Positions 7,910 through 31,147 of a DNA stretch of 64,000 nt are shown piece after piece (positions within the stretch are counted from its first letter, which is position 1; the number at the start of each line of letters is the position of its first letter). Both the position numbers and the translations under genes were made by a program. Source of the stretch: a virus; IMG/VR virus record IMGVR_UViG_3300025853_000058, positions 12,277-76,276 of that record; one strand, written 5' to 3'. The notes below the pieces were generated by a model. That model searched no databases. It worked only from the letters and a program-made list of their open reading frames with translations, and had not been told where the DNA came from.

Positions 7910-7910
7910 T

Positions 7911-8205: not shown

Positions 8206-8472
8206 TCATACTTTCATCTCCTTTATGTTCTCTATTGTTTTATAGAAAGGGGCTAACAATTTATCATCTGCAAAATGAATAGTTGCTAATGTCGTAAAAA
8301 TAAAATCCCAATGAGGATTTAACTCCCATTTACTCTCAACTGTTTTGTATTCTGTCCACTTAGGTTCTAGTAGTTTATGAACTTCTTCTCCTAAAAGATT
8401 CTTCCAATCAGTTTCGGGAGAGTGTGTTAATTCACACATAGTTGCTAAAAAACTGTAAATGTCACTTCTCAT
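8206..8472 (-). CDS. hypothetical protein within the polB split
   Basis: ATGA-coupled to the PolB N-half stop. Confidence 0.55.
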   Translation of the reverse strand: MRSDIYSFLATMCELTHSPETDWKNLLGEEVHKLLEPKWTEYKTVESKWELNPHWDFIFTTLATIHFADDKLLAPFYKTIENIKEMKV

Positions 8473-10118
8473 CCTTCCATCTCCTTTGCTTTAAATGCCG
8501 CTAATCTAATTGCTTCTCTAGCACTAGCAGTAATACTAGCGGCTAAATCTACATCAGCCCAACCAAATCCTTGATAGGCTACAATTCCGTAAAATGAAGC
8601 CATTAGGCGTTTTACTGCCATTTGATTGTTATGCCACTTTACTTCTTCCTTAGAATCTCCGGCCTCTCTTGCCTGTCGCATGAGCCGCTTATATTCATTC
8701 CGCAAAGTCTTCAATTCAAGAACGGCTCTTGGCAATAAACCAAGTTTATCTGTTTTGTAATAAAGTGTGTGTTCTCTTGTTGTTTCTGAGAAATCTCTTG
8801 GTGTTAGAATATTAACACCAAATTCAGTAGGTTCGTTTGATTTAGTTTCCCATGAAATATTGCGAGCAATCATCATTGATGGGTACAATCCTGCAAAATC
8901 AAAAGCCGCTACATTAAGATGTAGTCCGTTCGTTCCTTCACTAAGAGGGTCATAAATCATAGCACCTTCATAATCCTGTCTTTCAATATTTTTATCACCC
9001 GTTGGTGCTTTCCAAGTAGCATTCCTCATAAAATATATCGAACCCATATTACTTGCATAGAAACAAGATTCAAACGGAGCGCACAGTAATCGCTGTAATG
9101 AGATAATTGCTTCGCTACAAAAGTTTGTTTCATCAATTTCAACCATTAACTCAACATCAACTAAAGCATATTTAAGATATGTTTCTGTATCTTCGAGCCA
9201 AGCCCTGCGATAAAATTCATTTGGGTCTGGGAATTTCTTAGACACTAACTTAGTTTTACCAAGAACTTCTTCAGAAATATAGTTTAAAGACATTGATGGT
9301 AATGTTCCTCTTTGTGAATCATTCCACTGTCGCTCAAAAGCAAGGTCTAAATTGAGGGTTATGCGGCCCCCTATGGGCTGTTGGACCGGACTGAACCCAC
9401 TTTCACCTTTAGTGAAAACAAGGCCGTTAGGGGTCTTCTTTACCCCTTCTATGCGGTTAATTGGTGACATGAGCATGGGGTTAATTCCCAAAGCACAGCA
9501 CCTTTCAAGCAATTTTGGAATATCTGCAAAATTACCAAACCATGCAATTAACATATCGGGGTCTTTATTTACCATAACTCGAATAAAGGATTCAATCATT
9601 TCCTTTTCATCATCAAAGAACAACGGTTGCTCTCCTTCATAATTAGGGAACCAAGCCCATTGATAGTATTCTTTATCATAATTATCGTACATTACAATAG
9701 TAGTAATTTCATCATGGTGTTCTCCACCTTGTTGCCATTCCATATCCCAATACCATTTACGAAGTTCGTATTCCGGCATTTCGTGAATCTTATCAACAGC
9801 ATATCTGTTAGTAATAGAAACATCTGCTTCAAAGGTCTTGTTCCATTTTTTACGGGCTTTGTAAATATCACTAGCCTTTTCAACAACAACCTTTTGTAAA
9901 GGCTTACCTTGCAAAGAAACCCAATCGCCTTTAATATACTTAAATGGTCGGGTAATGTGACGGCTTGCTGAATAATCATCAAACCTAAACTCTCCGTCTT
10001 CTATAAAGAAGTAAGGGTCGAAAGCCTCAAGTTTAAATTTACGCTCGCCATTTTCTCGCCATGCTGTGTATATGTGTTTTTCGTCTAAGCATTTACTAAT
10101 TATCATTTTAATTACCAC
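8469..10118 (-). CDS. polB: family B DNA polymerase, N-terminal half (3'-5' exonuclease, motifs A and B)
   Basis: ExoI WDME, ExoIII YALVD, motif A DFAGLYPS, motif B KRLMASFYG. Confidence 0.92.
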   Translation of the reverse strand: MVIKMIISKCLDEKHIYTAWRENGERKFKLEAFDPYFFIEDGEFRFDDYSASRHITRPFKYIKGDWVSLQGKPLQKVVVEKASDIYKARKKWNKTFEADVSITNRYAVDKIHEMPEYELRKWYWDMEWQQGGEHHDEITTIVMYDNYDKEYYQWAWFPNYEGEQPLFFDDEKEMIESFIRVMVNKDPDMLIAWFGNFADIPKLLERCCALGINPMLMSPINRIEGVKKTPNGLVFTKGESGFSPVQQPIGGRITLNLDLAFERQWNDSQRGTLPSMSLNYISEEVLGKTKLVSKKFPDPNEFYRRAWLEDTETYLKYALVDVELMVEIDETNFCSEAIISLQRLLCAPFESCFYASNMGSIYFMRNATWKAPTGDKNIERQDYEGAMIYDPLSEGTNGLHLNVAAFDFAGLYPSMMIARNISWETKSNEPTEFGVNILTPRDFSETTREHTLYYKTDKLGLLPRAVLELKTLRNEYKRLMRQAREAGDSKEEVKWHNNQMAVKRLMASFYGIVAYQGFGWADVDLAASITASAREAIRLAAFKAKEMEG

Positions 10119-18996: not shown

Positions 18997-20508
18997 TTAT
19001 TCCTCCAAAAGAACAGCAACTTCAGTAGTTAAGAACAATGAAGCAATTGAAATAGCCGCATTAAAACTTCCCTTAGTCACCTTTACAGGGTCAATAACTC
19101 CCGCTTCAAACAAATCTTCATACTTTTCAGTAAGAGCATTATAACCATAGTGCGGGTTTCCATTTTGGAATACAGGAAAAGGTACATCACCATGACCACC
19201 ATTTTGCAGTAAAACTTCGGCAGGTTCAGACAGTGCATCATAAACAATCTTATGTCCGGTCTTTTCAATTGCTAGGTTCTTTCTAGCATTTAGCAAACCA
19301 TATCCACCACCAACAATAATGCCTTCAGCAAGTGCGGCCTTAGTTGCATTTAGAGCATCATCCAACCGTTCTTTCTTTTCACGCATTTCAAGAGATGAAG
19401 ATGCACCAATTTGAATTGTAGCGATACCTCCACTCAATCGAGAGATTCGCTTCTTCAAACGCTTCTTATCAAAATCATCATCAATTGTATCGAATACTGA
19501 CTTAAGAGTATTGATTCTCTCATCAGCAGAATTACCTCCAATAATAGTAGTGGATTCTTTTGTAATGATAATCTTCTCACAACTACCAAGTTCATCAAGA
19601 GTCACCAATTCGGGGTCGTCTTTGCTTTCATCAGTATAAAGTCTACCACCAACAATAGAAACAATGTCACCAAGTTCATCTAATTGAGCATCACCAAAAT
19701 TAGGTGCGGTGACAACAGCAACTTCAATTGTCTTTTGTAGAATATTCATAATGATATTGTTTAATGCTGTACCATCCATTCCTTTAACGAATAGAACAAT
19801 TGGTCGCTTTTCTACTGCGGCCATTTCCAACATTGGCAATACTTCTGAAAAATTCTTCATAGCCAAATTAGAAGTAAAGATAAGAGGGTTAGTGAATGTT
19901 GTTTTACCATCTTCACCATTAGCCATTAAATGACTTAAGTACCCTTCATCAATCTCCAAACCTTTACGAATAACCATACTCGTTCTATGGCTATTTGATT
20001 CTTCAACAGTAATAATTCCATCACGCCCGACTCCTTCCAAAGCAGTGCTAATTAGACCACCAAGATATGCGTCATTGTTTGCGGCAATAGTAGCGACATT
20101 CATAATATCAGCATCACCAATATCACAAGCCATCATTTCAAGGTGTTCAATAACAATGTTCTGTGCTTCTTTCAATTCCCTAGAAAGAGTATGAAGGTTC
20201 GCAACATCAGCATTATTGATTTGTTCACACAATGCTCTCGCAATAACACAAGCAGTTGTTGTTCCATCACCGGAATTGTCTTGTGCTTTATTTGCCAAGT
20301 TTTGAACCATTTGAACACCCATTTGAACATAAGGGTCTTCATGTGAAACATACTTCGTAATAGTCACACCATCGTTAATAATGACAGGCGGACTACCTTG
20401 AAGAATTACTGTCTTTGCTTGTGGCCCAAGTGTAGGTAATACTGTATCAGCAACCAAATTAATTCCTTGTAGTAGTTTTTCTTTAACTTTTTCTCCATGT
20501 ATAATCAT
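18997..20508 (-). CDS. groEL: group I chaperonin GroEL
   Basis: TLGP, NDGVTI, GDGTTT, APNFGD, KKERLDDALNATKAA, GGG, GVIDPVKV. Confidence 0.96.
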   Translation of the reverse strand: MIIHGEKVKEKLLQGINLVADTVLPTLGPQAKTVILQGSPPVIINDGVTITKYVSHEDPYVQMGVQMVQNLANKAQDNSGDGTTTACVIARALCEQINNADVANLHTLSRELKEAQNIVIEHLEMMACDIGDADIMNVATIAANNDAYLGGLISTALEGVGRDGIITVEESNSHRTSMVIRKGLEIDEGYLSHLMANGEDGKTTFTNPLIFTSNLAMKNFSEVLPMLEMAAVEKRPIVLFVKGMDGTALNNIIMNILQKTIEVAVVTAPNFGDAQLDELGDIVSIVGGRLYTDESKDDPELVTLDELGSCEKIIITKESTTIIGGNSADERINTLKSVFDTIDDDFDKKRLKKRISRLSGGIATIQIGASSSLEMREKKERLDDALNATKAALAEGIIVGGGYGLLNARKNLAIEKTGHKIVYDALSEPAEVLLQNGGHGDVPFPVFQNGNPHYGYNALTEKYEDLFEAGVIDPVKVTKGSFNAAISIASLFLTTEVAVLLEE

Positions 20509-20521
20509 ATCTTATTCCTCC

Positions 20522-20854
20522 TTAAAACGATTTGCCATGCATATATTCACGGCTTTGATTGTATTCAATCTTAGCGAGAATCGCACCCGCTATATCCAAA
20601 TCCATACCAAACGAATAATCCATAATACGAATTACAGCGTCGGCTAATTCTTCTTCAAGAGAAGAAAACTCAATAATCTTACTTGATGAAGGGTTTCCAT
20701 CTCTAAGAGCCTCAAGTGCTTCACTAATTTCAGCATGGATTAAAGCCATGCGTTCACCATCATTAGGTTCTTCTTTCCAAAAACCATGATTAACGGCATT
20801 CATATAGACTTTCTTTGATACACTATTCCAATGTCTTTCAAAATGACTCATCAT
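20522..20854 (-). CDS. MazG-like NTP pyrophosphohydrolase
   Basis: LIHAEISEALEA...EELADAVIR...K..YN..R. Confidence 0.85.
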   Translation of the reverse strand: MMSHFERHWNSVSKKVYMNAVNHGFWKEEPNDGERMALIHAEISEALEALRDGNPSSSKIIEFSSLEEELADAVIRIMDYSFGMDLDIAGAILAKIEYNQSREYMHGKSF

Positions 20855-21087
20855 TCATCACCTTCATAGGCATAAATCTTAGTAAAGGGTACAACAGTTA
20901 AAGAACCAATCATTTGATACTTAGTTCCTGTATTATCAAAATACACTGTTTTACCTACCAAGTATTCGTATTCCTTGCTAGTGCTTAGACACTTACCTTT
21001 ATTATCGGCTTTGCTAATAATACCACTACTTCGACTTGTTTGTTCTGTTTCAACAAGAATCCAATCTCCGCAACCTCTTAAAATCAT
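20851..21087 (-). CDS. groES: co-chaperonin GroES-like
   Basis: LRGCGDWILVE...SSGII...VGKTVYF; near groEL. Confidence 0.7.
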   Translation of the reverse strand: MILRGCGDWILVETEQTSRSSGIISKADNKGKCLSTSKEYEYLVGKTVYFDNTGTKYQMIGSLTVVPFTKIYAYEGDE

Positions 21088-21336
21088 TCAATCCATCCCC
21101 CGTCGTTGAGGCCAAGAAGATGCTAAGTTTGTTTCAGCGATTACTCGAAGCGATGCAAATAACTTTTTACGCTTATCTTCTGCTTTCTCAGAATTATCTG
21201 ACAAAGTGCTTTCTAATTCATCTACAATCCTATGGATAATTGTCGCAGTTTCTTCATCTATATCATCATAGCCATTTTCTTCTACGGTATTAATCCAATT
21301 AAATAATTGTGCAATTCTTTCTTCCCAATTAATCAT
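21088..21336 (-). CDS. hypothetical protein
   Basis: Probable start MINWEER after a GGAGGAAGAAGAATGA junction. Confidence 0.5.
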   Translation of the reverse strand: MINWEERIAQLFNWINTVEENGYDDIDEETATIIHRIVDELESTLSDNSEKAEDKRKKLFASLRVIAETNLASSWPQRRGMD

Positions 21337-21605
21337 TCTTCTTCCTCCTTTCCAGCAATTCGAACCCAAGCCTTATTCATGTCTTTATCAACAAATGTAT
21401 AAACATGGGTCTTATAGAACTTTTTGAGTTCTGCTGTCCTTTTGCCAGCCTTTCCCCAAGTCACCCCACGCTCGGTTTTGGGAACATTGGAATCTGAGGG
21501 ATGCCGACTCGAATGTTTTTCTGCCCTTTCAGTTAAGGTAATAAATTCATATTCCTGCATTGGCCTATCTTGATTTTTGTACATTGTGCTAATTCCTTCT
21601 TTCAT
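21333..21605 (-). CDS. hypothetical protein
   Basis: ATGA-coupled ORF. Confidence 0.55.
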   Translation of the reverse strand: MKEGISTMYKNQDRPMQEYEFITLTERAEKHSSRHPSDSNVPKTERGVTWGKAGKRTAELKKFYKTHVYTFVDKDMNKAWVRIAGKEEEE

Positions 21606-22138
21606 TCTTCTTCACTTCCATTCTTGTATTGTGTTGTGTATAATCCATTTTTATGAATACATAATTCATTTGGGGTGGATTGTTCCCAATGTCCGAAATG
21701 TTCGGGACCACCTAAAACATAGGCACTTTCCATCAATGGTTCCCAAATAGAAACAGTTCTCCAATCAGTACCACTGAAATATGCGGCTCCAAAAGGATGA
21801 GTATGAATCCAGCACTTTACAGGTAGTTTCATACCAACAGGGTCAATCTTAAAATCAACAAAACCTGCTGTTCCGTAAGAGATATGTAGTTTATCTCCAC
21901 CATCAACAACTACTTGAACTTCAAGCCCATTTAGAATAACAGTTGATGCTTTCCAAATAGAAAGGTGAAAGAACTCATTCGTAAAGTCCTTGTCTGCTCT
22001 AATGTATTCTTCCATAATAGAAGATTCAATAGCATCTTGAAAGAATGCTCGTTCTTCCACCATATCCTCAAATGCTTGAATACTTTGCTTATCCATCTCT
22101 TCCAAATAATCAGGGTCATAACTACTCATTTTAAACAC
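21602..22138 (-). CDS. JAB/MPN+ (JAMM) metalloprotease, Ubl deconjugase-like
   Basis: Upstream Glu (GLEVQ) and WIHTHPFGAAYFSGTD (HxH...SxxD JAMM motif). Confidence 0.85.
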   Translation of the reverse strand: MFKMSSYDPDYLEEMDKQSIQAFEDMVEERAFFQDAIESSIMEEYIRADKDFTNEFFHLSIWKASTVILNGLEVQVVVDGGDKLHISYGTAGFVDFKIDPVGMKLPVKCWIHTHPFGAAYFSGTDWRTVSIWEPLMESAYVLGGPEHFGHWEQSTPNELCIHKNGLYTTQYKNGSEEE

Positions 22139-23270
22139 CTCGCAACTTGTTCAACTTCTTCTCCAACTTGGCCGCCTTCTTAGCCTTTCGTGCTATTCTA
22201 CGACGCTTCCAACGGCTCATATTGGTATTCTTAGCCTCTTCCTTCTTTCGCTTTGAAATGACTTTAGCGGCCTTCTTAAGCATAGCAATATGTTCAGGTT
22301 GTTCACTATCAACAATCATTTCTAACCTTTGAGCAAGTGAAGCATAACTTCGACCAAATTGATTTCTTGCTTCATCAATTGACAATTCATAGAAATTACA
22401 CAAGAGTTCAAATTCCTCTTCATTTTTCCAATGCTTTTGGCTTCTTTCGTGCTTTCGTTCTGGAAGTGCTTCCAATACTTCATTTACTTCCCTAAACATT
22501 TTCTTCTCAGCGTTTGAAAGATGGCGAGTGGTTGGATTACCATGCTTTTCAACAAAGACTTCAATCTTTTCAGGTAGTGTTTCCGCCTTTGGCCTAATCT
22601 CATTTTTCTTAACTAGAATATCCTTAATCATTTGACGCTTAAAAGAAATATACTTTGAAGTTTGTCCACCTTTCTTAAGTTTAGACCATCGAGCAGAAAT
22701 CGAAAACTTAGTCCTGTTATCGAATGAATCAACGAGTTCTTCGCAAACAGACTTTTTCATTCCGTTTGTGATTTCACAATCATACATTTTTTGAAGCAAA
22801 ATTTTGTCTTCTGCGGCACTCCATCTTTTTTGATTTCTTGGTGTGTGTTTACTAACAACCTTTACAGTAGATTTTTTCGTTTGTTGGTTTTCACCAACAA
22901 GTTCGGAAATTGCGTTTCGCAGGAATGATTTACTCAACTGTCCTTTAAGTGAACTAGAGTACAATGTGTTAGTAATAGTATTAATATCCTTCTTGGTAGT
23001 ATTATCGTCAGTTGTTAGGTTGGCGTAGTATCTACACTGTTTCTTTGTTGCTGGCTCATAATTTTCTGGTATTTTCATTTCTTCTTCCTCCTTATTTTGA
23101 TTTTGTTTTTCGACGAACCATACTATTTTATTACGGATATTCGCCCCTGTTTTCTTAACAGAATATGTTTGTTCTAACCTCCTTGCAATAGCGTTCCAAG
23201 TTAATCCTTCTTCTCTTAATTTTAAAACAAATTCAATTTGTTCGTCTGTCCATTTATTATATTTATTCAT
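22131..23270 (-). CDS. Myb/SANT-like HTH repeat protein
   Basis: Three W-[TSK]-x-x-[EQ] repeats: KWTDEQIEF, RWSAAEDKIL, HWKNEEEFEL...GRSYASL..RL. Confidence 0.6.
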   Translation of the reverse strand: MNKYNKWTDEQIEFVLKLREEGLTWNAIARRLEQTYSVKKTGANIRNKIVWFVEKQNQNKEEEEMKIPENYEPATKKQCRYYANLTTDDNTTKKDINTITNTLYSSSLKGQLSKSFLRNAISELVGENQQTKKSTVKVVSKHTPRNQKRWSAAEDKILLQKMYDCEITNGMKKSVCEELVDSFDNRTKFSISARWSKLKKGGQTSKYISFKRQMIKDILVKKNEIRPKAETLPEKIEVFVEKHGNPTTRHLSNAEKKMFREVNEVLEALPERKHERSQKHWKNEEEFELLCNFYELSIDEARNQFGRSYASLAQRLEMIVDSEQPEHIAMLKKAAKVISKRKKEEAKNTNMSRWKRRRIARKAKKAAKLEKKLNKLRGV

Positions 23271-23824
23271 ACATTCACAACCTTATATTGGCATACTTCT
23301 TCTTGATTCATATATCTTTGAATCCATTGTGCGCCCATTCCTGCAATAACAATTTGCATAAAATGAACGGCTTTGTTTGTTCCATCCCAAGAATCTCCTT
23401 GACAACTAAATGACCCATCTTTACCTGCTAAAAGCGTATCGTACATTTTGGGGTCGGCTTGATAACTAACAAGGGCGGCGTTCCTACCTTGCGCCCGTAA
23501 GTCTAACCACTTAATACTTGTGTTGTAAAGGGTTCGTCTAACCGACAAATTATCCACACAACAGATAACCAAGTCATAACCAGACATTTGCTTTTCAGTC
23601 AGTATTGGGAACTTTGAGTAGTGGTTCACTGATTCATATTCATTCATCATAACACTAGCCTTATTCTGCCCAACATGACCTCTCTTAAAGTTTTGATATG
23701 TTAAGTTCTTTGTTTCTACAATATCGGGGTCTGCAACAGTAATGTTGTATAGTCCGACTTTATCTAAGTATTGAGTCAAGAATGACCCAATGCCGCCTGT
23801 TCCAATTATTAGTATTTTTCTCAT
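23267..23824 (-). CDS. ThiF/MoeB/E1-like Ubl-activating enzyme
   Basis: IIGTGGIGS, DPDIVETKNLTYQ, GQNKA, CCVDN..R, candidate catalytic Cys in FSCQ. Confidence 0.88.
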   Translation of the reverse strand: MRKILIIGTGGIGSFLTQYLDKVGLYNITVADPDIVETKNLTYQNFKRGHVGQNKASVMMNEYESVNHYSKFPILTEKQMSGYDLVICCVDNLSVRRTLYNTSIKWLDLRAQGRNAALVSYQADPKMYDTLLAGKDGSFSCQGDSWDGTNKAVHFMQIVIAGMGAQWIQRYMNQEEVCQYKVVNV

Positions 23825-23826
23825 AT

Positions 23827-24318
23827 TTATTCCTCCTTATATTTCATTCTTTGTTCTCTCATTTTTTTGTCGTAGTTTTCTTCCCACTTCAAATAGTCCT
23901 CTTCCCACAATATGTGCATATGCCAATCAGCAGAATGTTCTTTCAAACCTTTCCAATCAACTTCCATTGAACAATATTCACAATTTTTATCATCACATAG
24001 TTCGCCGCTTCTTTCTTCTGTGTCAAAACAAAGATAAGAGTCATATTTGAAATAGTATTCAACATGATACCCCTGCTCTCTCCTTTCTTTTACCCACTTA
24101 CTTTCAGGAGTAAGAGGCAAAACATCATATTCAGCAACTATGTGAATTTCACAAACAGGACAATCCCATTCAGTTTCTGCCAAATGCCATTCTTCAATAG
24201 GCATAGTGTGGGTTCTTAGAAGAACTTCTGCCTTTTCACGACAATATGGGCAATCACTTTGTAGGTTTTTCATAGTCTCAACTATGTTGTTTTCCCTTTC
24301 AATCTCAAATTCATTCAT
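23827..24318 (-). CDS. Cys-rich zinc-binding protein
   Basis: CPYC, CPVC, CDDKNCEYC. Confidence 0.55.
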   Translation of the reverse strand: MNEFEIERENNIVETMKNLQSDCPYCREKAEVLLRTHTMPIEEWHLAETEWDCPVCEIHIVAEYDVLPLTPESKWVKERREQGYHVEYYFKYDSYLCFDTEERSGELCDDKNCEYCSMEVDWKGLKEHSADWHMHILWEEDYLKWEENYDKKMREQRMKYKEE

Positions 24319-25177
24319 TCTTATTCTCTCCTAATTCACTAAATTGTTTGCCTTTTACTTGGGCACAAGTTGAAAGACCTATTAATCCTAAAAGGTCTTT
24401 CGTTTGTTGTTGTATTGCTGACCTTGAAACTTCTGTCTTTTCAGAAATAATAGTCAGTGTTATTTTTGGATAAACAAAGATATTCTTTGAAATCCAACAA
24501 ATGCTTTCATAGTAAGCATTTCTTTTATTATATTCTCGCTTTATAACAATAGACTCAAAGAACTCTAAAGTTTCCAGACATTGTGAAACGAATACTAAAT
24601 CGCTACTTATTTGATTAGCCGATTTCTTTAGAAGAAACATAGGGTCTGGTTGCATATGCTTGGCATTACCACCATAATGTTTCTTGATTCTTCTAATCAA
24701 TCGGTTTATGCTTTTTCCGCCACAGTTAAATTCTTCACACGCCGCTTTCAACTTAACAGGTGTTCTATTCTCAAATAAAACAAACCAAGCCACAGCAGTT
24801 CCTCTTACTTCCAAAGAAGCAGAAGAAAAGATATTCTTAGCGTGTAATTCACGATACAGAATACCGGCTCTATCTCTTAGAGATGTTTCAGTCACACCTA
24901 AAGAAGAAAGAACTATTTGTGAAAATACAACACCTTTTCTTAGGTGTCCATCCTTTGATACAAAACGGTTTTGAGTATTTGCTAACTTGCTATATCCTTT
25001 AATGTTGCTTCCTAAGATACCTTTGTCTGGTGAGCGTGTCACTTCTTCATTGGTTTGTATTCTTACAGACTGTTCAAACAACTCGGTTGCTACTATCAGC
25101 CCACAGTATTGACAGGCAGTTTCGCCTATAATTTCATCATACTCAAAATCATTCCCTTTGCATTCTACACATCTCAT
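24311..25177 (-). CDS. tfb: transcription factor B (TFB/TFIIB)-like
   Basis: N-terminal Zn ribbon CVEC...GETACQYCGLIV followed by two cyclin-like repeats. Confidence 0.8.
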   Translation of the reverse strand: MRCVECKGNDFEYDEIIGETACQYCGLIVATELFEQSVRIQTNEEVTRSPDKGILGSNIKGYSKLANTQNRFVSKDGHLRKGVVFSQIVLSSLGVTETSLRDRAGILYRELHAKNIFSSASLEVRGTAVAWFVLFENRTPVKLKAACEEFNCGGKSINRLIRRIKKHYGGNAKHMQPDPMFLLKKSANQISSDLVFVSQCLETLEFFESIVIKREYNKRNAYYESICWISKNIFVYPKITLTIISEKTEVSRSAIQQQTKDLLGLIGLSTCAQVKGKQFSELGENKNE

Positions 25178-26312
25178 TAAAATCCTTCCTATTTTTATTT
25201 GGTTCCGATACTATGTATCGCTTAATTGTATTTACAATCTGTATTGTCATATTGTCATTTAATAGAGCCATCGCTCTTGCGGCAAATTGGTCGCCAAGAG
25301 ATGAACCCCTTGACATATTATCAATACATATTGGTCCCTTCCAAACCCACTTACATAAGTCTATGGGTATTGGTTGGTTGCCTTCATCTAATTCCATTTT
25401 AGGTTGCGAAACAAAAGTTGAAACCTTTTGTATATCGCTTTTAAATTGGTTGTCTGAAATAAGCCAATCATAATGATTACCTTTAATATACAAAGCAGTA
25501 GGGTTTTTACCGTCTTCCATAATCAATTTTAGCCTTTCGCTGTATTGTTCTGCCATTTCAGTTAGAAGTTGAACGGCTCTTTCTTCAACAATATCTTGCT
25601 GTCTGTTTTGCTTAAGAAATTCCCTCATCAAATGAAGTTCATTTTCAGTAGGTTCCCTACCAATAACGAAAGTATAAAGTTTCTTTATACCGAAATAGGC
25701 AAATTTTGATTTTTTCCTACCATCAATAAAGAACTTGCACATATTATCCAAATCTCGATTTTTGATAGTACCCCAAACACCATCGGATATTTCAATCGCA
25801 CATTCTTTATCCGAAATTTGTTGAACTGCTAACCTAACCTCAATCTTTTTGAAGTCACTAAAGAAGTGATAAGGCATTCTGTTTTCAAGACAATACTTAG
25901 TACGCTCGCTCAAAGATAGAACAGTCATTAAAGACTTCATTAATTTAACACTATCTGTTTCTCTAATAGCAGAAAAGGTCACTCTTGCTAAAGCATTTGT
26001 GATAGTGCTTAGTGCTTCACCTTTACCGTTCAAATAATATCTATTTCCTTTCAATTCTAAAGCCACAGGCAACGAACCAATGTATATTAGAAATGGCCCT
26101 TTTGACCAACGAACATTATTCCTTTGGTCTTTTCTAGATAATATCTTTCTCCACCAACCAACTAGTCCTGAATGAACAGGGTCTTTATCGTTTCTGTTAT
26201 ATGTGACAAACTGTTCTTTTGAGTACCAATGTATATTTTCGGAGGAAATTTCAACAGGGTTAAAATAATCTCTACTATCATCGGGTTTTTTAATTTTTAA
26301 TTTTATTGTCAT
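25149..26312 (-). CDS. hypothetical protein with C-terminal GPICID...GDQ...ALLND motif (candidate Ubl-system partner)
   Basis: 387-aa ORF upstream of TFB and E1; function inferred from context only. Confidence 0.5.
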   Translation of the reverse strand: MTIKLKIKKPDDSRDYFNPVEISSENIHWYSKEQFVTYNRNDKDPVHSGLVGWWRKILSRKDQRNNVRWSKGPFLIYIGSLPVALELKGNRYYLNGKGEALSTITNALARVTFSAIRETDSVKLMKSLMTVLSLSERTKYCLENRMPYHFFSDFKKIEVRLAVQQISDKECAIEISDGVWGTIKNRDLDNMCKFFIDGRKKSKFAYFGIKKLYTFVIGREPTENELHLMREFLKQNRQQDIVEERAVQLLTEMAEQYSERLKLIMEDGKNPTALYIKGNHYDWLISDNQFKSDIQKVSTFVSQPKMELDEGNQPIPIDLCKWVWKGPICIDNMSRGSSLGDQFAARAMALLNDNMTIQIVNTIKRYIVSEPNKNRKDFNEMCRMQRE

Positions 26313-26483
26313 GTAATCACATCATATATATATTGTCAATTTTATTATTACTCGCACATTCTATGTGCATTTCTTTTTTAATTTCTTCTGGTAATAACAA
26401 CTGCCCACCACAAATGCGGCAAGAGGTCGCTATTCTTTTTTTGTAGGCTCTATGGCTTGTGGTGTATTTAGGGTCTTTTTCTT

Positions 26484-26819
26484 TCATCTATTCCACCTGT
26501 AATTTCCTTTACACAATTTGCATTCGTGTCCACATTCGCCTTCATTTGAGGAATGATACATAATAGCATGGTGTCTTACCAAGAGGTTATCATTTAACCA
26601 TGTGTCAAATCCAATTTTTACAGCATCTTCAAATTCCCAAAGAGCCGTATATAGGGTTTGTCTTAGTCTAAATTTTCTATCATCCTCATCATCTAGTTCA
26701 TCACATACTTCTAATGCTAGCAGAAGTTTAATTCGTGAAACATGGGAAAAGTCATCCATTACAGTTAGCAGGCTATTTTTTTGATGGGTGTATGGAAGTT
26801 TAATCCATCTTTCTTCCAT
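26484..26819 (-). CDS. hypothetical protein
   Basis: ORF with C-terminal C/H cluster. Confidence 0.55.
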   Translation of the reverse strand: MEERWIKLPYTHQKNSLLTVMDDFSHVSRIKLLLALEVCDELDDEDDRKFRLRQTLYTALWEFEDAVKIGFDTWLNDNLLVRHHAIMYHSSNEGECGHECKLCKGNYRWNR

Positions 26820-26828
26820 AAGCCCACC

Positions 26829-28703
26829 TCAAATTTCACAAAGCCCGCCAGCGCAAGCAAGTTCACCGGATAAATCAGTATTATCTTCCGACTCAATCAC
26901 TTTAGTCAAATCAATATCTTCCAAAAGGTTATACATTTCTTCGTATTGTTCTTTAGTAATTGTTTCAAATGGTGCTTGTTTATAAGTTCCACCATCATAA
27001 GGAAGAACAGCAAGACCGTTGTAGTAATGTCGATTAAACCACATCCATTCTGCAACATCATCCCATTCATCATCTTTGATTGAGATAGTAGCAGAAACAT
27101 TATGAGTGTTCATACCATCAACATGACCGTTGCGAACCCAACGAATGCTAAATTGTTTTACTCTTTCAAGTAATTCAAATACACTTTCACTTCGAGTAGT
27201 GGCTCCTTCCGGTGCTTTTTGTGGAATGCTAATCACTGCTTGTTCAGTAGGGTTAAAGTATTCATCTTCTACTAATTCAGGATGATTGTTAAGTAGATAA
27301 CCATAAATTGCTTCGTTTTTACCTACACGAATACGACGAATATAGTTTTCGTCATGCCAAGCATGAATACCACTACTTGTTCCAAGAACAAGAGAAGTCG
27401 TTCCTGCCGGTTTAACGCAAGTAATTCGGCTTGCTTCATTAATTCCAATTATCTTAGCGATTCTATGATTTTCAAGTTTTGCTTGAAGTGACGCAGATTC
27501 AATATCTAACTTTTCAACAACATTAGAAGCAATACCTGTCATAGATACACCAAGCAAAGAATCTTTTTCAGTAGTCTTTCGCCAAATATCACGAAGGTAG
27601 TGGAAGTCTGTATATCCAGCCTGTAATGTTCCTAAGAAAGCGGCGGCTTTAACACGGTCTTCTAAATCCTTTTGTCCTTCAACAGTAGAAGCATTTACTT
27701 CTGTTAGATTACAGAATTGGAAAGGTCTTAGTGCAATTTCACAACAAGGATTAGTTCCCCAATCTTTATCATTACTAAAATAAATTCCGGGTTCTCCAGA
27801 ACCACTTAATTGAATCCTTTCCCAAACTTGCATAAAAAATTCTTTATTAATTCTATGTCGTAGTAATACTGCTGAGTTGTTTGCTCTACCCCGTTGTGGA
27901 TTATTAACATACCATTCACCTGCTTTACAAGCAAGCATTTTAGAATCATCAGCACTAAACAGGCTAATCATAGCGGCACGACGAATACCTCCTGCGAGGA
28001 CAGCATCAGCCAAATGGCACATAATATCATGTGCTTGAAGCGAATCAAGTTTAGAACCATTAGGTAGGTTTTGTAAAATACCTTCGACCTTTACTAAACA
28101 TTCACGCAAAGGTTGAGGGCCGGGTGCTTTTCCACCAGAAGTCTTTAATAAAGAACCTTTAGGTCTAATATCAGAATAGTCAAACTTAGGACTATCTTTC
28201 TTTACACCCATATAACATTCCATAAGAACCTTTACTGCGTCAGCCCAACCTTCAATTGAATCATTAATTAAATAGCGGCGTTGTCGAGTATTGTTAGGTT
28301 GTCTTATTTCGGGTAATTGCTCAATATGGTGACGCTGGACAGAATACCCAACCCCCGTTCCACCGAGAAGTAAAAACATAGATTCACTAAAAGCAATATA
28401 GGAGTCAATAGGCAAATAAGCGCAGTTATAAACCCTATTTGGGCTAATCTCCACAGGCTTTCCGCCAAATTGCATAGAACGCATGGACGGTAGAATCTTC
28501 CTTGTTCTAACATAATTTTTGTATATCTCATTTATTTCCTCTCCTAGTTCGGGATATGTTTTGATGTGCATATTTTTATTTCGGGTGACTATCTCATCCC
28601 ATGTTTCTCTTCGTTCACTTTCCGGTAAAAACCTTGCATATTTCATATGTACGGTAATATCGGAGAGTATCTGTATTGCTTTGTTTTCAGTCATAATTAA
28701 CAC
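26829..28703 (-). CDS. nrdJ: class II (adenosylcobalamin-dependent) ribonucleotide reductase
   Basis: YNCAY, GTGVG, GGIRRAA, TNPCCEI, CNLTE, TCVKPAGT, C-terminal ACAGGLCEI; no NrdB in window. Confidence 0.92.
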   Translation of the reverse strand: MLIMTENKAIQILSDITVHMKYARFLPESERRETWDEIVTRNKNMHIKTYPELGEEINEIYKNYVRTRKILPSMRSMQFGGKPVEISPNRVYNCAYLPIDSYIAFSESMFLLLGGTGVGYSVQRHHIEQLPEIRQPNNTRQRRYLINDSIEGWADAVKVLMECYMGVKKDSPKFDYSDIRPKGSLLKTSGGKAPGPQPLRECLVKVEGILQNLPNGSKLDSLQAHDIMCHLADAVLAGGIRRAAMISLFSADDSKMLACKAGEWYVNNPQRGRANNSAVLLRHRINKEFFMQVWERIQLSGSGEPGIYFSNDKDWGTNPCCEIALRPFQFCNLTEVNASTVEGQKDLEDRVKAAAFLGTLQAGYTDFHYLRDIWRKTTEKDSLLGVSMTGIASNVVEKLDIESASLQAKLENHRIAKIIGINEASRITCVKPAGTTSLVLGTSSGIHAWHDENYIRRIRVGKNEAIYGYLLNNHPELVEDEYFNPTEQAVISIPQKAPEGATTRSESVFELLERVKQFSIRWVRNGHVDGMNTHNVSATISIKDDEWDDVAEWMWFNRHYYNGLAVLPYDGGTYKQAPFETITKEQYEEMYNLLEDIDLTKVIESEDNTDLSGELACAGGLCEI

Positions 28704-29071
28704 CTATATTTACTTGCTTTTGGTAATTCTAGAAGAGAAGAAAAAGAATGGAGCCATTCACCATTTTTGTAAATGACCCACTCTTTTTCTTCTATAAACT
28801 TCCATTCATCAAAGTCTTCGATTGCTGAATTACCATGCTTAGAGAAAAGCATTTCAACACTCTCGAAGATATTACCCCGATAATTTATTTTTGATTGGCC
28901 CTTAGCGCAAATTTTCCCGTGTTTGCCTTGCGCTATCATATACATCTCTTCATAAAAATCTGGCTTAAATAAAGCCAATTCTTCATATATGATTGGTTGA
29001 AGCATTTTCCAGCCTTTTGTTTCCAAAAAGAGTTTCAATGCTTCTGCTGATACAAAGTTGCGAATGTCCAT
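28697..29071 (-). CDS. hypothetical protein
   Basis: Probable start MDIRNF. Confidence 0.55.
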   Translation of the reverse strand: MDIRNFVSAEALKLFLETKGWKMLQPIIYEELALFKPDFYEEMYMIAQGKHGKICAKGQSKINYRGNIFESVEMLFSKHGNSAIEDFDEWKFIEEKEWVIYKNGEWLHSFSSLLELPKASKYRC

Positions 29072-29084
29072 AGTTGCCACACCC

Positions 29085-29124
29085 AAAAAAGGGTAGGGTA
29101 CAGCCTAACGGCCATACCCCACCC
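29085..29124 (-). terminator. hairpin plus T6 downstream of the Ubl gene
   Basis: GGGTGGGGTATGGCCGTTAGGCTGTACCCTACCC-TTTTTT on the minus strand. Confidence 0.65.
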
Positions 29125-29160
29125 AAATTTTGCAACTTGCAAACGGTTTAAGAACCTTGC

Positions 29161-29361
29161 TTATCCGCCGACGATGGCAGGTACTAAATCAACATTTTGA
29201 ACAGTTTCCCAATTAATATCAGTGATTGATTCCCTTGCTACCATATCACCGTCAATAAAGACCCAATGGGTAGGGTGTGTGTCAATTTGTTCAATAACCG
29301 ACTCACTAACTAAAGTGAGGTCGGTGTGGCCTGTTTCGTTCAAAATTCGTAGTTTAATCAT
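29161..29361 (-). CDS. ubiquitin-like (SAMP/MoaD/ThiS beta-grasp) protein with C-terminal GG
   Basis: 66 aa, 'WVFIDG.MV...VDLVPAIVGG*', matching the ThiS/MoaD/SAMP C-terminal pattern; GGAGG SD. Confidence 0.78.
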   Translation of the reverse strand: MIKLRILNETGHTDLTLVSESVIEQIDTHPTHWVFIDGDMVARESITDINWETVQNVDLVPAIVGG

Positions 29362-29381
29362 TGTGATTCCTCCGTTGTGTT

Positions 29382-29408
29382 CTCTCCACTGTCTGTACCC
29401 TTATAAAC
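29382..29408 (-). promoter_or_regulatory. archaeal TATA promoter GTTTATA-N5-ACAGACA-N-TGGAGAG upstream of the Ubl gene
   Basis: 21/27 identical to the element at 36519-36545. Confidence 0.65.
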
Positions 29409-29472
29409 CGATGCGGTTCGGGCTGTCTTTTCATTTTTCTTCATTTTCTTGTTATTCATTTTTTTCACTTCC

Positions 29473-29739
29473 TTAAAAGTTATCCTCATATTCTCTATCT
29501 TCTTTCTCAAACTTTCGCTGTTCTTCAAGATAGCCGGTAAGAATCATGTCCATCTTATCCTGCATATCATGTATAATTCCAGCAATAGTTCGTCGTTTTA
29601 GGCTAATCCAAATGCGGTGATAAGTATTGATAATCACCACAGGTAAATCGTCTTCATTTGCTTTGATAATAATAGGGGGTAATTCCCTATCATCAACAAA
29701 TCTCATCTCAACCTTTGTTTCTCTTTCTAATGTATTCAT
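29473..29739 (-). CDS. hypothetical protein
   Basis: ORF in operon. Confidence 0.55.
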   Translation of the reverse strand: MNTLERETKVEMRFVDDRELPPIIIKANEDDLPVVIINTYHRIWISLKRRTIAGIIHDMQDKMDMILTGYLEEQRKFEKEDREYEDNF

Positions 29740-30104
29740 TCGTATTCCTCCATATCAAAATTTGGTAGCACTAAGGCAACTACCTCTCCGTTTTCGTCGT
29801 ATTCCTTTTGCATAATCTGGTCAAATACCCACTTAGCATCATCACTGATAACTAATCGAGTTTCATCGGACCTTGCTGAGAATAATGCACATTCTACATT
29901 CTTAAGGAATCGTTCTTGTAAAAGCCTTACACAGTTCTCACTGTATATAATAAGACTTTCATCATCTAAATATAACTCACTTTCTTTGACAACTTCAATA
30001 ACTTGGTCCAAAGTAAGGTAGCCTTGATTATACAGCAAGTTTAGCAGGTTTCTGTCAATTAGGCCCATCATGTCATATTCCTCATTTGTAATTTTGATGG
30101 TCAT
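29736..30104 (-). CDS. hypothetical protein
   Basis: Probable start MTIKIT. Confidence 0.55.
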   Translation of the reverse strand: MTIKITNEEYDMMGLIDRNLLNLLYNQGYLTLDQVIEVVKESELYLDDESLIIYSENCVRLLQERFLKNVECALFSARSDETRLVISDDAKWVFDQIMQKEYDENGEVVALVLPNFDMEEYE

Positions 30105-30400
30105 GCCAACACCTGCAACCATGCTACGAGGTAGTCTTTGTTCTTTGCGCCTACAAGTGACTCAAGCCTACCATAATTAGGATATTCTTCTTTATCCAAT
30201 ATAGCAATCATAGTGTCAGCAAGCAATTTAGCCATAAATGTCGGACTTAATTCAACAAAGACCTTTGAAAGTTCCCTGCTTATTTCCATCTTCATATTCT
30301 CATGTGCCAAACATTGAACACATTGAACACGCATCATCACATCATGTTGATAATCGGCTTTCATAATGTGTCCTACATTATTACATTCTTCACAAATCAT
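30101..30400 (-). CDS. zinc-finger protein
   Basis: CEEC...CVQC. Confidence 0.55.
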   Translation of the reverse strand: MICEECNNVGHIMKADYQHDVMMRVQCVQCLAHENMKMEISRELSKVFVELSPTFMAKLLADTMIAILDKEEYPNYGRLESLVGAKNKDYLVAWLQVLA

Positions 30401-30563
30401 TCTTCTTCACCTTTCCAATACCAAGTTTGTTGACCAAGTTCATCAACTGTCATTCCCAATTGTTTAGCAATAACATCCATTGGTACACACATATACCAAC
30501 CGATTTCACGACTTTGGCCGTTGTAGCCTTTGTAGTGCTTTCTCATAAATTCAATAATTTCAT

Positions 30564-30782
30564 TCATTCTTCCTCATCTCCAAATAAGTCAGCATAAGAA
30601 CCGTCTTCTTCGTGCGCTTCACGGAGTACGCTTTCATAATCGCTCATTCCAACTTCGTATGCGATTCTGTCCATTCTATACAAGGTTAATGAAGCACTGC
30701 ATTCAATACCACATACATCAATTGTGCCATATAGTTCATCGAGCATATCATCATAGTATTCTCTCATAATATTCATATTCAT
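30564..30782 (-). CDS. small acidic hypothetical protein
   Basis: YDDMLDELYG...L...D.IAY..G..DY pattern. Confidence 0.6.
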   Translation of the reverse strand: MNMNIMREYYDDMLDELYGTIDVCGIECSASLTLYRMDRIAYEVGMSDYESVLREAHEEDGSYADLFGDEEE

Positions 30783-30861
30783 TCTTCTTCACCTGCTCCA
30801 AGATGGTCTTTCAATTCTCGCAGTTCTTGTAAAATCAAGTATAGTATTTGTTCCATTGTGT

Positions 30862-31014
30862 TCATTCTTCTTCCTCCTTTTTTGTTTTTAACCCATAAGT
30901 TTTAACTACTGCACAAAACTCTTGATGGGCATATAATAAATCCCAATCAATGTCTTCTTGGTAATCAACAAGTGGTGTTTCATAACCACAAATACATTCT
31001 GCACTAAGTTTCAT
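30862..31014 (-). CDS. small zinc-binding protein
   Basis: MKLSAECICG...HQEFC. Confidence 0.5.
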   Translation of the reverse strand: MKLSAECICGYETPLVDYQEDIDWDLLYAHQEFCAVVKTYGLKTKKEEEE

Positions 31015-31147
31015 TCTTCTTCCTCCATTTTCACAAAAGCCCATTCAAGACCTTCATCTGTGTTTAGATTCATTGTAGTATCGTGCATTAGTTCAAAAAA
31101 CCAACCCATGTCACTTGTTCTTAATTCAATTGTAATTTTATATTTAT

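Follow-up and report, generated by a model that had tools for sequence, protein, structure and literature searches.

A magrovirus gene set predicted to encode a ubiquitin-like modifier, a minimal E1, a JAB protease and a cysteine-bearing partner

Genes and signals at the locus

The 64,000-nucleotide stretch of DNA analyzed here (the window) comes from a magrovirus, an oceanic virus whose hosts are Marine Group II archaea (Poseidoniales); its 76-kb record is 81% complete. As read from its genes, this virus carries its own ubiquitin-like (Ubl) tag, a miniature E1, a trimming protease (JAB) and a conserved one-cysteine partner. The original prediction had placed the first three as open reading frames on a single strand, and all of them are present there. 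They are listed with the fourth component and with three signals that were read directly from the nucleotides around the Ubl gene.

21602..22138, minus strand: JAB, a JAMM/MPN+ metalloprotease with a variable helical N-terminal extension (motif and model)
23267..23824, minus strand: E1, 185 aa, a single ThiF-type adenylation domain (PF00899)
25149..26312, minus strand: fourth component, 387 aa, a candidate E2-like carrier with a conserved Cys, between the Ubl and E1 genes
29085..29124, minus strand: G+C-rich hairpin plus T6, terminator-like, after the Ubl gene
29161..29361, minus strand: Ubl, a 66-aa beta-grasp protein ending PAIVGG-stop (AlphaFold2, Foldseek, VIA-align, conservation)
29369..29373, minus strand: GGAGG ribosome-binding site, 7 nt before the Ubl ATG
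29401..29407, minus strand: TATA-like box TTTATAA, ~43 nt upstream of the Ubl ATG

Within the genome, the set occupies the replication and expression arm and not the region of the tail genes. Each of its four genes evolves under purifying selection (dN/dS 0.07-0.43; 0.07-0.18 for the Ubl). A GroEL-type chaperonin gene adjoins it, and the virus also carries tRNA genes. The TFB and Myb-like regulator said to be interleaved with the set received weak support, as the matches to the TFIIB zinc ribbon (E 4e-6) and to Myb (E 1.5e-3) both fall below the Pfam cut-offs.

The Ubl has no match in Pfam, PHROG or NCBIfam. Its AlphaFold2 model (pLDDT 90) shows the strand-strand-helix-strand-strand-helix-strand order of a beta-grasp; the best Foldseek matches belong without exception to ubiquitin, NEDD8 or SUMO (prob 0.97-0.99), and VIA-align placed MoaD, ubiquitin variants, Fubi, BilA and ISG15 at Z 5.4-5.0. 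PAIVGG is invariant across 26 aligned relatives, in which the stop codon shifts 0 to 4 codons downstream to leave 0-4 extra residues after GG; about two thirds of the viral homologues carry 1-4 of them. Both the beta-grasp fold and the conserved GG end proposed for this protein are thus borne out. The TATA-like box is a putative promoter, and in each of 24 related loci compared, TTTATA(A/T) or TTTAAAT recurs with unchanged spacing, despite diverged flanks. A hairpin and T-run follow the gene in 24/24 relatives examined, with stems that differ yet pair (-24 to -38 kcal/mol). The GGAGG site is likewise retained in these 24 relatives. The promoter and terminator originally ascribed to the Ubl gene therefore exist as conserved signals, and their presence suggests separate, perhaps strong, expression.

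The E1 matches ThiF (PF00899) with an E-value of 2e-20 and 73 bits (cut-off 28), in agreement with its description as a minimal E1/ThiF enzyme. Its GxGGIGS and DxDxVE motifs, K55, D91 and R96 are invariant, as is Cys141 (SCQ), even in host forms of 30% identity. ThiF and MoeB are the best named profiles, and MccB is among the PDB sequence matches. Since the usual Arg of the NLxRQ motif is replaced by Tyr in the viral E1 (His in host forms), and both CxxC zinc pairs and the N-terminal helices of MoeB/ThiF are absent, we treat E1 activity as an assumption.

The JAB (178 aa) hits Pfam Prok-JAB below the cut-off (E 3e-3). E73 and H112-x-H114-x7-S122-x2-D125 (HTHPFGxAYFSGTD; residues 112-125, encoded at 21764-21805) are invariant, and the AlphaFold2 model (pLDDT 85) adopts an MPN fold whose first Foldseek matches are AfJAMM (1oi0), Rpn11 and PfJAMM1. 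Motif and modelled fold together uphold its identification as a JAMM protease.

The 387-aa protein carries Cys329 (codon 25326-25328) in a C-terminal domain (residues ~250-370) with the motif GPICID...LGDQ...ALLND, and this cysteine is conserved in at least 95% of 68 distinct viral members. Searches of Pfam, PDB, NCBIfam and PADLOC yielded no sequence match to the protein, nor did those against UQ_con and the Prok-E2 families; hhalign related it to a host family (Prob 95.7%, E 1e-8). The cysteine domain is fused behind a Ubl in P0129, P0167, P0160 and P0148. Such features make the protein a candidate E2-like carrier. The analogy first drawn to E2-less SAMPylation is not supported for a set with a fourth conserved, invariant-Cys protein whose host homologues are fused to a Ubl or encoded beside Ubl, E1 and JAB.

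Co-occurrence and host homologues

Among viral contigs reaching far enough, all of which belong to a single virus lineage whose gene order is conserved, the E1 is present in 60/60 loci and the Ubl in 44/44, while RNR, MazG and Myb-like genes come and go between the genes of the set. The proposed co-occurrence of Ubl, E1 and JAB is hence strict across related viral contigs, and these data support the three genes as real and functionally linked. A profile search of 1.8 billion representatives recovered 132 relatives, including tandem 2x and 3x Ubl proteins, each unit ending in xxVGG, and the Ubl-E1 fusions P0131 and P0161, to whose E1 part the viral E1 is 31% identical. Like the Ubl-cysteine-domain fusions, all of these would need endoproteolytic release after GG.

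Chromosomes of the Poseidoniales hosts carry distant homologues of all four parts (~30% identity for the E1). In ~55 Poseidoniales genomes the E1 is followed by the JAB, either adjacent or fused as E1-JAB, and a Ubl or di-Ubl and a cysteine-domain protein are encoded either next to them or at another site in the genome; 51 of the 81 sampled host genomes hold 1-4 cysteine-domain paralogues. Between them, the Ubl-E1, E1-JAB and Ubl-cysteine-domain fusions tie all four parts to one another. The viral Ubl tail PAIVGG is mostly PGLVGG in hosts, and a quick tree separates viral E1s from host minimal E1s by a long branch (SH-aLRT 96). Judged from sequence comparison, the viral genes are distant copies of a host gene set of which we found no published description in the literature. 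The gene order around the host locus is that of the conserved core and not of a variable island, so a defence role is not indicated. The same hosts keep a separate MoeB plus rhodanese E1 of 387-406 aa, which means that sulfur transfer in these hosts is not the task of the minimal E1.

These relatives also bear on the role of the JAB, to which the original prediction had assigned deconjugation rather than maturation. Tails of 1-4 residues and tandem or fused host precursors indicate that maturation is part of the family's job, which argues against its exclusion. A second role is suggested by viruses that retain the full active site although their Ubl ends directly in GG and needs no trimming.

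A possible viral conjugation cascade and its alternatives

We consider it moderately likely that the virus encodes a self-contained, four-protein cascade for ubiquitin-like conjugation and deconjugation. The Ubl would expose its C-terminal Gly-Gly, directly here and after removal of a 1-4 residue tail by the JAB in most relatives. The minimal, probably homodimeric E1 would adenylate the terminal glycine, and the activated Ubl would pass, possibly via E1 Cys141 first, to Cys329 of the 387-aa protein as a thioester. From there it would be transferred through isopeptide bonds onto lysines of host or viral proteins, and the JAB would also reverse the modification. The virus thereby probably tags proteins itself. 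A protein-modifier system explains the genes better than a known sulfur-carrier pathway, a preference already expressed in the original prediction, whose overall interpretation is partly supported.

The homologous system in the host lineage, missed in the first reading of the window, opens hijack or antagonism readings. The viral JAB could strip host Ubl conjugates, or the viral Ubl and E1 could compete with the host E1, cysteine-domain paralogues or Ubl as decoy, inhibitor or hijacker, so that the genes would interfere with the host pathway and not form an autonomous cascade. We find this unlikely, even though hosts provide homologues of all four parts and frequent cysteine-domain paralogues, Ubl tails differ between virus and host, and the split between viral and host E1s is as expected of an old, diverging counterpart. 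Four parts under purifying selection exceed the needs of a decoy or lone deconjugase, and the core gene order of the host locus gives no indication of a host defence role.

Distinctly unlikely, in our view, is that the Ubl is a sulfur carrier, adenylated by the E1, converted to a thiocarboxylate by a host persulfide donor and used by host enzymes to make a thionucleoside, cofactor or small molecule; the JAB would then only trim tails or release adducts, like QbsD and Mec+. Known sulfur carriers such as QbsE/QbsD, CysO/Mec+ and MoaX likewise include fused precursors and GG tails trimmed by a JAMM enzyme (Iyer et al. 2006). The folds allow such a role, with MoaD, MOCS2A, ThiS, TtuB and CysO at Z 4.2-5.4 (VIA-align), no lower than ubiquitin, and the ThiF and MoeB profiles of the E1, a faint ThiS match (E 0.03) in one relative and the viral tRNA genes lean the same way. 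Nevertheless, profiles for ThiG, MoaE, rhodanese, a desulfurase-type partner, PP-loop thiolase (TtuA/NcsA) and ThiS found no match in the 76-kb record, which extends to the whole record the absence of ThiG, MoaE and tRNA-thiolase genes first noted for the window. The hosts' MoeB-rhodanese E1 stands apart from this system, tandem 2-3x Ubl precursors and a Ubl-fused invariant-cysteine partner suit modifiers better, and the JAB is kept where trimming is unneeded.

Very unlikely is a function without conjugation, either MccB- or RiPP-like chemistry on the adenylated Ubl C-terminus, which the MccB match of the E1 recalls, or a JAB-released factor that aids assembly or acts as a chaperone non-covalently, as has been suggested for lambda TAPI/TAPK (PMC1779556), in line with described phage Ubl and JAB pairs that lack conjugation (Iyer et al. 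2006) and with the adjoining GroEL-type gene: the set lies away from the tail genes, a folded 66-aa beta-grasp that also occurs in tandem repeats does not resemble RiPP precursors, and the conserved cysteine partner would be left without a role.

Relation to known systems

MoeB/ThiF-type genes have been noted as frequent in archaeal viruses, with a suggested connection to ubiquitination (RaFAH survey, PMC8276007; Asgard virus Nidhogg, 10.1101/2021.07.29.454249); the portions of these two sources considered here name the E1 alone and leave a viral Ubl, JAB, cysteine partner and host counterpart undescribed. The cascade proposed above is best read, by analogy, as closest in architecture to bacterial Bub/Bil systems and not as a copy of E2-less SAMPylation. 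In bacterial Bub, which performs conjugation with a minimal homodimeric E1, a Ubl-E2 fusion is cut after Gly by a JAB-E1 fusion; Type I Bub (6E.1) comprises BubAB (Ubl-E2), BubCD (JAB-E1) and BubE (PMC11601596). Host homologues of the viral set similarly show 1-3 beta-grasp domains, a Ubl fused to the carrier and a fused JAB and E1, with a predicted cut by the JAB after a conserved Gly and an E1 made of one adenylation domain without a CYS domain. The viral set differs in that each of the four proteins has a gene of its own, the invariant residue of the candidate carrier is Cys and not Ser, the E1 keeps the invariant Cys141, and the JAB is C-terminal to the E1 in the host fusions. Its setting is archaeal and viral, ThiF is the sole common sequence family, and DUF6527 (BubE) had no match in Pfam scans of the ORFs tested.

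BilABCD comprises the same four roles (Ubl, E2, JAB, E1), its DUB pre-processes the Ubl to expose Gly (PMC10557695), and BilA (8tyz_B, Z 5.2) is among the structural matches of the viral Ubl model. However, BilD is a large IAD-AAD-CYS E1 compared with 185 aa in the virus, and Bil is a bacterial defence system (PMC10557695), whereas the present set is carried by a virus; its JAB, Ubl and cysteine protein have no PADLOC or NCBIfam match. SAMP/UbaA/HvJAMM1 is likewise archaeal and combines a beta-grasp GG protein, a ThiF-type E1 and a JAMM protease (PMC2948915, PMC4443979, PMC4895103). The UbaA equivalog model, however, scores 34 bits against a cut-off of 450, and Poseidoniales hosts have their separate MoeB-rhodanese E1. 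SAMPylation is E2-independent, and the present set has in addition a conserved cysteine partner as well as Ubl precursors in tandem or fused form.

Of the named models, the PRTRC-system ThiF (TIGR03736) scores highest with the host Ubl-E1 fusion (73 bits, E 2e-20) and ranks near the top with the viral E1 (44 bits), but both scores are far under the cut-off of 144.75, and other PRTRC proteins were not detected. QbsE/QbsD/QbsC, CysO/Mec+/MoeZ and MoaX resemble the viral set in their JAMM enzyme, their E1 and a GG end from which a short tail can be removed. They are not known to work without an acceptor enzyme and a rhodanese or persulfide donor, for which the virus record gave no match, nor are they known to combine tandem repeats with a dedicated cysteine partner. 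The TAPI (Ubl) and TAPK (JAB-NlpC/P60) proteins of lambda and T1 also form a virus-encoded Ubl and JAB pair (PMC1779556), but they come without an E1, belong to a tail module and represent a different Ubl family.

The viral ubiquitin-like protein and its C-terminus

All four genes of the set are encoded on the minus strand, within the replication and expression arm of the virus, and specify a ubiquitin-like protein (Ubl), a ThiF-type E1 enzyme, a protease of the JAB (JAMM/MPN+) type and a larger cysteine-containing protein. The original prediction had placed the first three of these at the positions at which we find their ORFs.

Genes of the viral set
21602-22138, minus strand, 178-aa JAB protease
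23267-23824, minus strand, 185-aa E1
25149-26312, minus strand, 387-aa protein with Cys329
29161-29361, minus strand, 66-aa Ubl ending in PAIVGG

The 76,276-bp record, of which the window represents bases 12277-76276, has an estimated completeness of 81% and a magrovirus-like gene content, i.e., a split family-B DNA polymerase, an RFC-like ATPase, an ATP-dependent ligase and a GroEL-type chaperonin. Further genes of the magrovirus type are those for a class II RNR, terminase, portal, tRNA-Leu and tRNA-Met, and a close homologue of the 66-aa protein is annotated as a protein of 'Poseidoniales virus YSH_150918'. Magroviruses are viruses of Marine Group II archaea (PMC5434244). A megablast search of window positions 21000-30000 against GenBank phages returned no match. 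All genes of the set are under purifying selection (dN/dS 0.07-0.43).

The beta-grasp fold anticipated for the 66-aa protein was borne out by its AF2 model (pLDDT 90; alignment of 26 relatives), for which the best 50 Foldseek rows were all ubiquitin, NEDD8 or SUMO (prob about 0.97-0.99, E 2e-3 to 1e-2). VIA, which is independent of Foldseek, returned MoaD, ubiquitin variants, Fubi, MOCS2A, BilA and ISG15 as top matches (Z 5.4-5.0 over 58-64 of the 66 residues), the range widening to Z 5.4-4.2 with ThiS included; these Z values are modest because the domain is only 66 aa long, and the match list is uniform. The protein has no match in Pfam, PHROGs, NCBIfam or PADLOC, and the ThiS profile (PF02597) finds nothing across the whole record. 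As judged from these sequence comparisons, the Ubl is a family not filed in curated sequence databases.

The conservation of the terminal diglycine, on which the original prediction had laid weight, is complete in the viral Ubls. The PAIVGG end is unchanging among the aligned viral relatives, Gly-Gly is kept by 120/120 viral proteins listed and by the 70 loci that have the Ubl motif, and 132 distant relatives end in xVGG with a few AG variants. A stop codon directly follows GG in only about one-third of 117 distinct viral homologues, and the others carry tails of 1-4 residues (NY, NL, SY, CY, Q, SL and others). Such a constant GG with a shifting stop codon marks the second glycine as the functional end of the protein.

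The Ubl gene had also been credited with its own promoter and terminator; as an observation, these signals recur in 24 related loci.

Signals flanking the Ubl gene
43 nt before the Ubl ATG, minus strand, TATA-like TTTATAA, kept in 24/24 related loci examined
7 nt before the Ubl ATG, minus strand, GGAGG, kept in 24/24 related loci examined
29085-29124, after the Ubl stop, minus strand, G+C-rich hairpin followed by a T-run, in 24/24 related loci, with stem sequences that vary and pairing that is retained

The hairpin with its T-run is of bacterial style in an archaeal virus, and it is found at the same place in the viral relatives L002-L030 despite changes on both stem arms. Within the protein, the viral Ubls share three unchanging histidines (H12, H29 and H32, in NETGHT and HPTHW), of which the wider family keeps only the first, in the TGH hairpin, plus Trp33.

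Partners of the Ubl in magroviruses and Poseidoniales

The E1 matches the ThiF profile PF00899 with 73.4 bits (gathering cut-off 28.1; profile positions 22-205 of 238), and its nucleotide-site residues (G8-G10-G11-I-G13-S, D32/D34, K55, D91 and R96) are unchanging even when host forms of 30% identity are included. MoeB and ThiF enzymes have as standard the Arg of the NLxRQ motif and two CxxC zinc pairs. In the E1 family described here, this Arg is replaced (NLTYQ in viruses, NLGHQ in hosts), and the sequence of the C-terminal half has a single Cys (C141), no C-terminal CxxC and no zinc site. Cys141, in SCQ, is constant across the aligned viral and host forms. The best PDB sequence match of the E1 is a ThiF-type protein without a name, and an accession search of papers for 9EGB/9EGC found nothing relevant.

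In the JAB protein, residues E73 and H112-x-H114-x7-S122-x2-D125 are unchanging, and the motif HTHPFGxAYFSGTD was found in 92 loci. Its model (pLDDT 85) retrieves 1oi0 AfJAMM, Rpn11, a Caldiarchaeum Rpn11-like protein and PfJAMM1 as top Foldseek matches (prob 0.85-0.99, E 8e-3 to 3e-2); Pfam Prok-JAB stays below its cut-off and covers the motif region only (17.7 bits vs. 25, E 3e-3). The JAMM site is intact in viruses with and without a Ubl tail. Therefore, trimming cannot be the sole job of the protease.

The scan of related viral loci covered 29 that were retrieved with the E1 and 80 that were retrieved with a JAB alignment. Wherever the flank is sufficient, E1 is present in 60/60 and Ubl in 44/44 viral loci. 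E1 and JAB are directly adjacent in many viruses, and the genes between set members vary by group, with RNR, a 129-aa ORF, MazG and a Myb-like gene present or absent. The expected co-occurrence thus holds in every viral locus with enough flank, but all these loci represent one virus lineage with conserved gene order, so that viral co-occurrence alone is weak evidence of a functional link.

An E1 alignment was run against one genome per prokaryotic species and yielded 67 loci. Three of these share 52-55% identity with the viral E1; nearly all others, at 27-35%, belong to Poseidoniales (Poseidoniaceae, Thalassarchaeaceae), several on contigs of 170-780 kb. A JAB homologue immediately follows the host E1 gene, often overlapping it, and the two form a single E1-JAB ORF in seven loci. 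The Ubl gene lies just upstream in MGIIb-type loci, four loci show Ubl-E1 fusions, and in Poseidoniaceae the Ubl is a di-Ubl gene elsewhere in the genome. The flanks of the host loci are ordinary conserved chromosomal genes rather than a variable island. The same genomes encode a separate E1 of 387-406 aa with a rhodanese-like C-terminal end (ThiF match, E 1e-79). In an E1 tree from a quick search, drawn with midpoint rooting for display only and subject to long-branch caveats, a long branch (SH-aLRT 96) splits viral E1s from host minimal E1s, and the MoeB-rhodanese enzymes are far from both. Recent capture of host genes was rejected as the origin of the viral set, because the E1s are only ~30% identical and the viral E1s lie beyond this long, well-supported branch.

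In MGIIa as well as MGIIb loci from the prokaryotic genome scan, the gene directly behind that of the host JAB encodes a conserved, probably helical protein of ~79 aa. It may be a fifth host component, with no obvious viral counterpart seen.

Genes for the ~79-aa protein in host loci
L114, 11181-11420
L129, 11178-11417
L132, 11115-11390
L122, 11056-11292
L126, 11154-11393

A profile of the viral Ubl retrieved 132 relatives from 1.84 billion representative proteins. The family signature comprises TGH in the first hairpin, W-V-F-V-D in strand 3 and P-x-L-V-G-G at the end. Some members are head-to-tail proteins of two or three units (P0121, P0125 and P0126, plus six two-unit proteins), in which each unit has a VGG end followed by a short linker. 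P0131 and P0161 are fusions with the Ubl in front of an E1 part that passes PF00899 and has 31% identity to the window E1 over its full length. In others, the Ubl precedes either of two kinds of 250-300-aa domain without assignment (P0129, P0167 and P0137; P0148 and P0160). Such tandem and fused forms imply that a protease is needed to free the GG end. A search of viral contigs for loci related to P0131 and P0121 found nothing. In hhalign, the C-terminal domain of P0129 shows no relation to the JAB family and is therefore not a JAB.

The 387-aa ORF sits between the Ubl and E1 genes, and all related viruses retain it. Its 68 distinct viral sequences conserve Cys329 and the surrounding motif, GPICID with LGDQ...ALLND...T behind it, to at least 95%, and the Cys is aligned in the host members. 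To us, this motif resembles the GxICLD loop of E2 enzymes and the helix that comes after it. Database searches assign no such identity: in Pfam, no family was reached at E ≤ 0.1 by the 387-aa protein or at E ≤ 1 by 20 family members; the UQ_con and Prok-E2_B profiles find nothing in the record; the cysteine domain gives only chance-level matches, and no E2, against PDB and Pfam profiles; NCBIfam and PADLOC return no defence-system match for the 387-aa protein; and the Protein Atlas holds no model and no named relatives for it or for a host homologue. The viral profile matches, weakly but repeatedly, host ORFs that adjoin the host Ubl, E1 and JAB genes, and profile-profile comparison (hhalign) relates the viral and host cysteine-domain families with Prob 95.7% and E 1e-8 over 142 columns, the Cys motif being aligned. 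A joint profile recognizes the C-terminal domains of the Ubl fusions P0167, P0129, P0160 and P0148 (within that small set, E 8e-7 to 2e-4). Only profile methods reveal this link: in BLASTP, the 387-aa protein has no significant match to P0160 or P0129. One to four cysteine-domain paralogues occur in 51 of 81 sampled Poseidoniales genomes. The 387-aa protein is, on this evidence, a conserved cysteine partner and a candidate carrier enzyme.

Proposed conjugation, its alternatives and known systems

Since the E1 is joined by fusion or adjacency to both Ubl and JAB, and the Ubl likewise to the cysteine domain, a cascade is the most economical reading. JAB would free or trim the Ubl, the minimal E1 would adenylate its terminal glycine, and the Ubl would then be handed to a cysteine (Cys329 of the partner, or E1 Cys141 first) before its transfer to a target; JAB would also reverse the modification. 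We are largely confident of a narrower point, namely that the parts act jointly on the GG end. That the set performs covalent protein conjugation is the answer we favor, with distinctly less assurance. More tentative still, and in our view somewhat doubtful, is the possibility of two homologous, long-diverged four-part cascades (tag, minimal E1, cysteine carrier, JAMM), one in magroviruses and one in their Marine Group II hosts, as an archaeal counterpart of Bub/Bil. The viral copy would then be the first complete protein-tagging cascade known from a prokaryotic virus, tagging or untagging host or viral proteins during infection in competition with the host system.

A sulfur-carrier role of the set is possible: MoaD, ThiS, TtuB and CysO match the Ubl model as well as ubiquitin does, and JAMM-trimmed carriers exist. 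Against it stand the MoeB-rhodanese enzyme that hosts retain apart from the set and the combination of tandem Ubls with a dedicated cysteine partner, which does not characterize carriers. The original prediction had recognized no sulfur-partner gene, and profile searches agree with it, as MoaE, ThiG, rhodanese, ATP_bind_3 and ThiS profiles match nothing in the 76-kb record, which is an estimated 81% complete; host enzymes could substitute for those not encoded there. Alternatively, given the host homologues, the viral parts may target or counteract the host pathway instead of working by themselves, which is compatible with conjugation. A nonconjugating use, whether RiPP-like adenylation or an assembly factor such as lambda TAPI/TAPK, fits the data least.

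Among prokaryotes, Ubl conjugation is currently known for the SAMPs of haloarchaea and other archaea, for a few archaea that have eukaryote-like operons, and for the bacterial anti-phage systems CBASS Cap2/3, Bil and Bub. The viral E1 stays below the cut-off of the UbaA equivalog model of the archaeal SAMP/UbaA system (NF047750, 34 bits vs. 450). In Bub Type I, experiments have demonstrated a Ubl-E2 fusion, with 1-3 beta-grasp domains, that is cut after Gly by a JAB-E1 fusion, the E1 being minimal, homodimeric and devoid of a CYS domain (PMC11601596). The same cascade logic has been shown for Bil (PMC10557695), and such systems were predicted from gene neighborhoods in 2006 (PMC1779556). The likeness of our set to Bub/Bil is one of architecture only, i.e., co-occurrence of the four viral genes and, in hosts, adjacency plus fusions that join E1 to either Ubl or JAB and the cysteine domain to Ubl; homology is shown only at the E1, JAB and Ubl superfamily level. 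In contrast to Bub, where the carrier residue is Ser, it would here be Cys. The set further differs from Bub/Bil in the E1-JAB order of the host fusions, in E1s that have Tyr or His for the NLxRQ Arg and are without a zinc site, and in its setting, a virus and an archaeal order.

The RaFAH survey describes MoeB/ThiF genes as common in archaeal viruses and mentions ubiquitination (PMC8276007), and an Asgard-virus preprint reports viral E1-like genes (10.1101/2021.07.29.454249). Neither the main text of the magrovirus paper (PMC5434244) nor a second magrovirus paper mentions ubiquitin, ThiF or JAB, and our literature search found no paper coupling magroviruses or Poseidoniales with a Ubl system.

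The set would add a conjugation-type system carried by a virus and not by the defending cell, and an undescribed system of Ubl, E1, JAB and cysteine domain in an archaeal order that ranks among the most abundant of the surface ocean. The eukaryotic ubiquitin system is thought to derive from archaea. The viral set is built of very small proteins, with a tag of 66 aa and an E1 of 185 aa, and could serve as a minimal model of E1 chemistry; it also makes testable whether virus and host fight via parallel tagging systems in archaea. Magroviruses are reported among the most abundant marine viruses (PMC5434244), which makes the set ecologically widespread.

Variation and gene organization around the viral set

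The Zn-finger (23827-24318), TFB-like and Myb-like genes were discarded as members of the set, because many relatives retain all four core genes while lacking these or having others in their place. The first of these (minus strand), which abuts the E1 start, encodes a 163-aa protein with CxxC pairs and a weak zf-Di19 match (E 2e-5); it occurs in only some related viruses and is therefore probably not a core part.

Synonymous divergence between window positions 21602-29361 and the viral relative L003 is mosaic, with dS of 0.38-0.48 for E1 and JAB, 1.2 for the Ubl and 2.3 for the 387-aa gene, which suggests recombination between parts of the set among closely related viruses.

Three contigs of 12-43 kb from the prokaryotic scan (L111, L112 and L113), binned as Maricaulis and Altibacter MAGs, carry a magrovirus-type E1 (52-55% identity), a JAB and a 387-aa family protein. 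Their E1s group with viral E1s in the tree, and they are probably viral contigs mis-binned into bacterial MAGs. On the 95-kb contig of a Thermoplasmatota MAG (L153, 8192-10654), the order is Ubl, JAB, two small ORFs and E1, and the match of its JAB to the viral family (E 3e-36) is much closer than that of other host JABs (E 1e-12 to 1e-20). This locus possibly belongs to another virus or provirus type in which the genes of the set are arranged differently.

The family-B DNA polymerase is split into two minus-strand pieces, one with the exonuclease domain and Pfam DNA_pol_B positions 36-193 (8469-10118) and one with DNA_pol_B positions 221-370 and a HypA-like zinc region (6274-7170). The ~1.3 kb separating them contains a 123-aa ORF of no assigned function (7685-8056). 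Across window positions 20000-31100 (minus strand), many ORFs end in ...EEE or ...GEEE directly before the next start (e.g., ends at 21602, 21333, 30397, 30564 and 30862), and these ends recur in all JAB homologues from related viruses. It seems that the C-terminal Glu codons of the upstream protein double as the GGAGG-type ribosome-binding site for the gene downstream.
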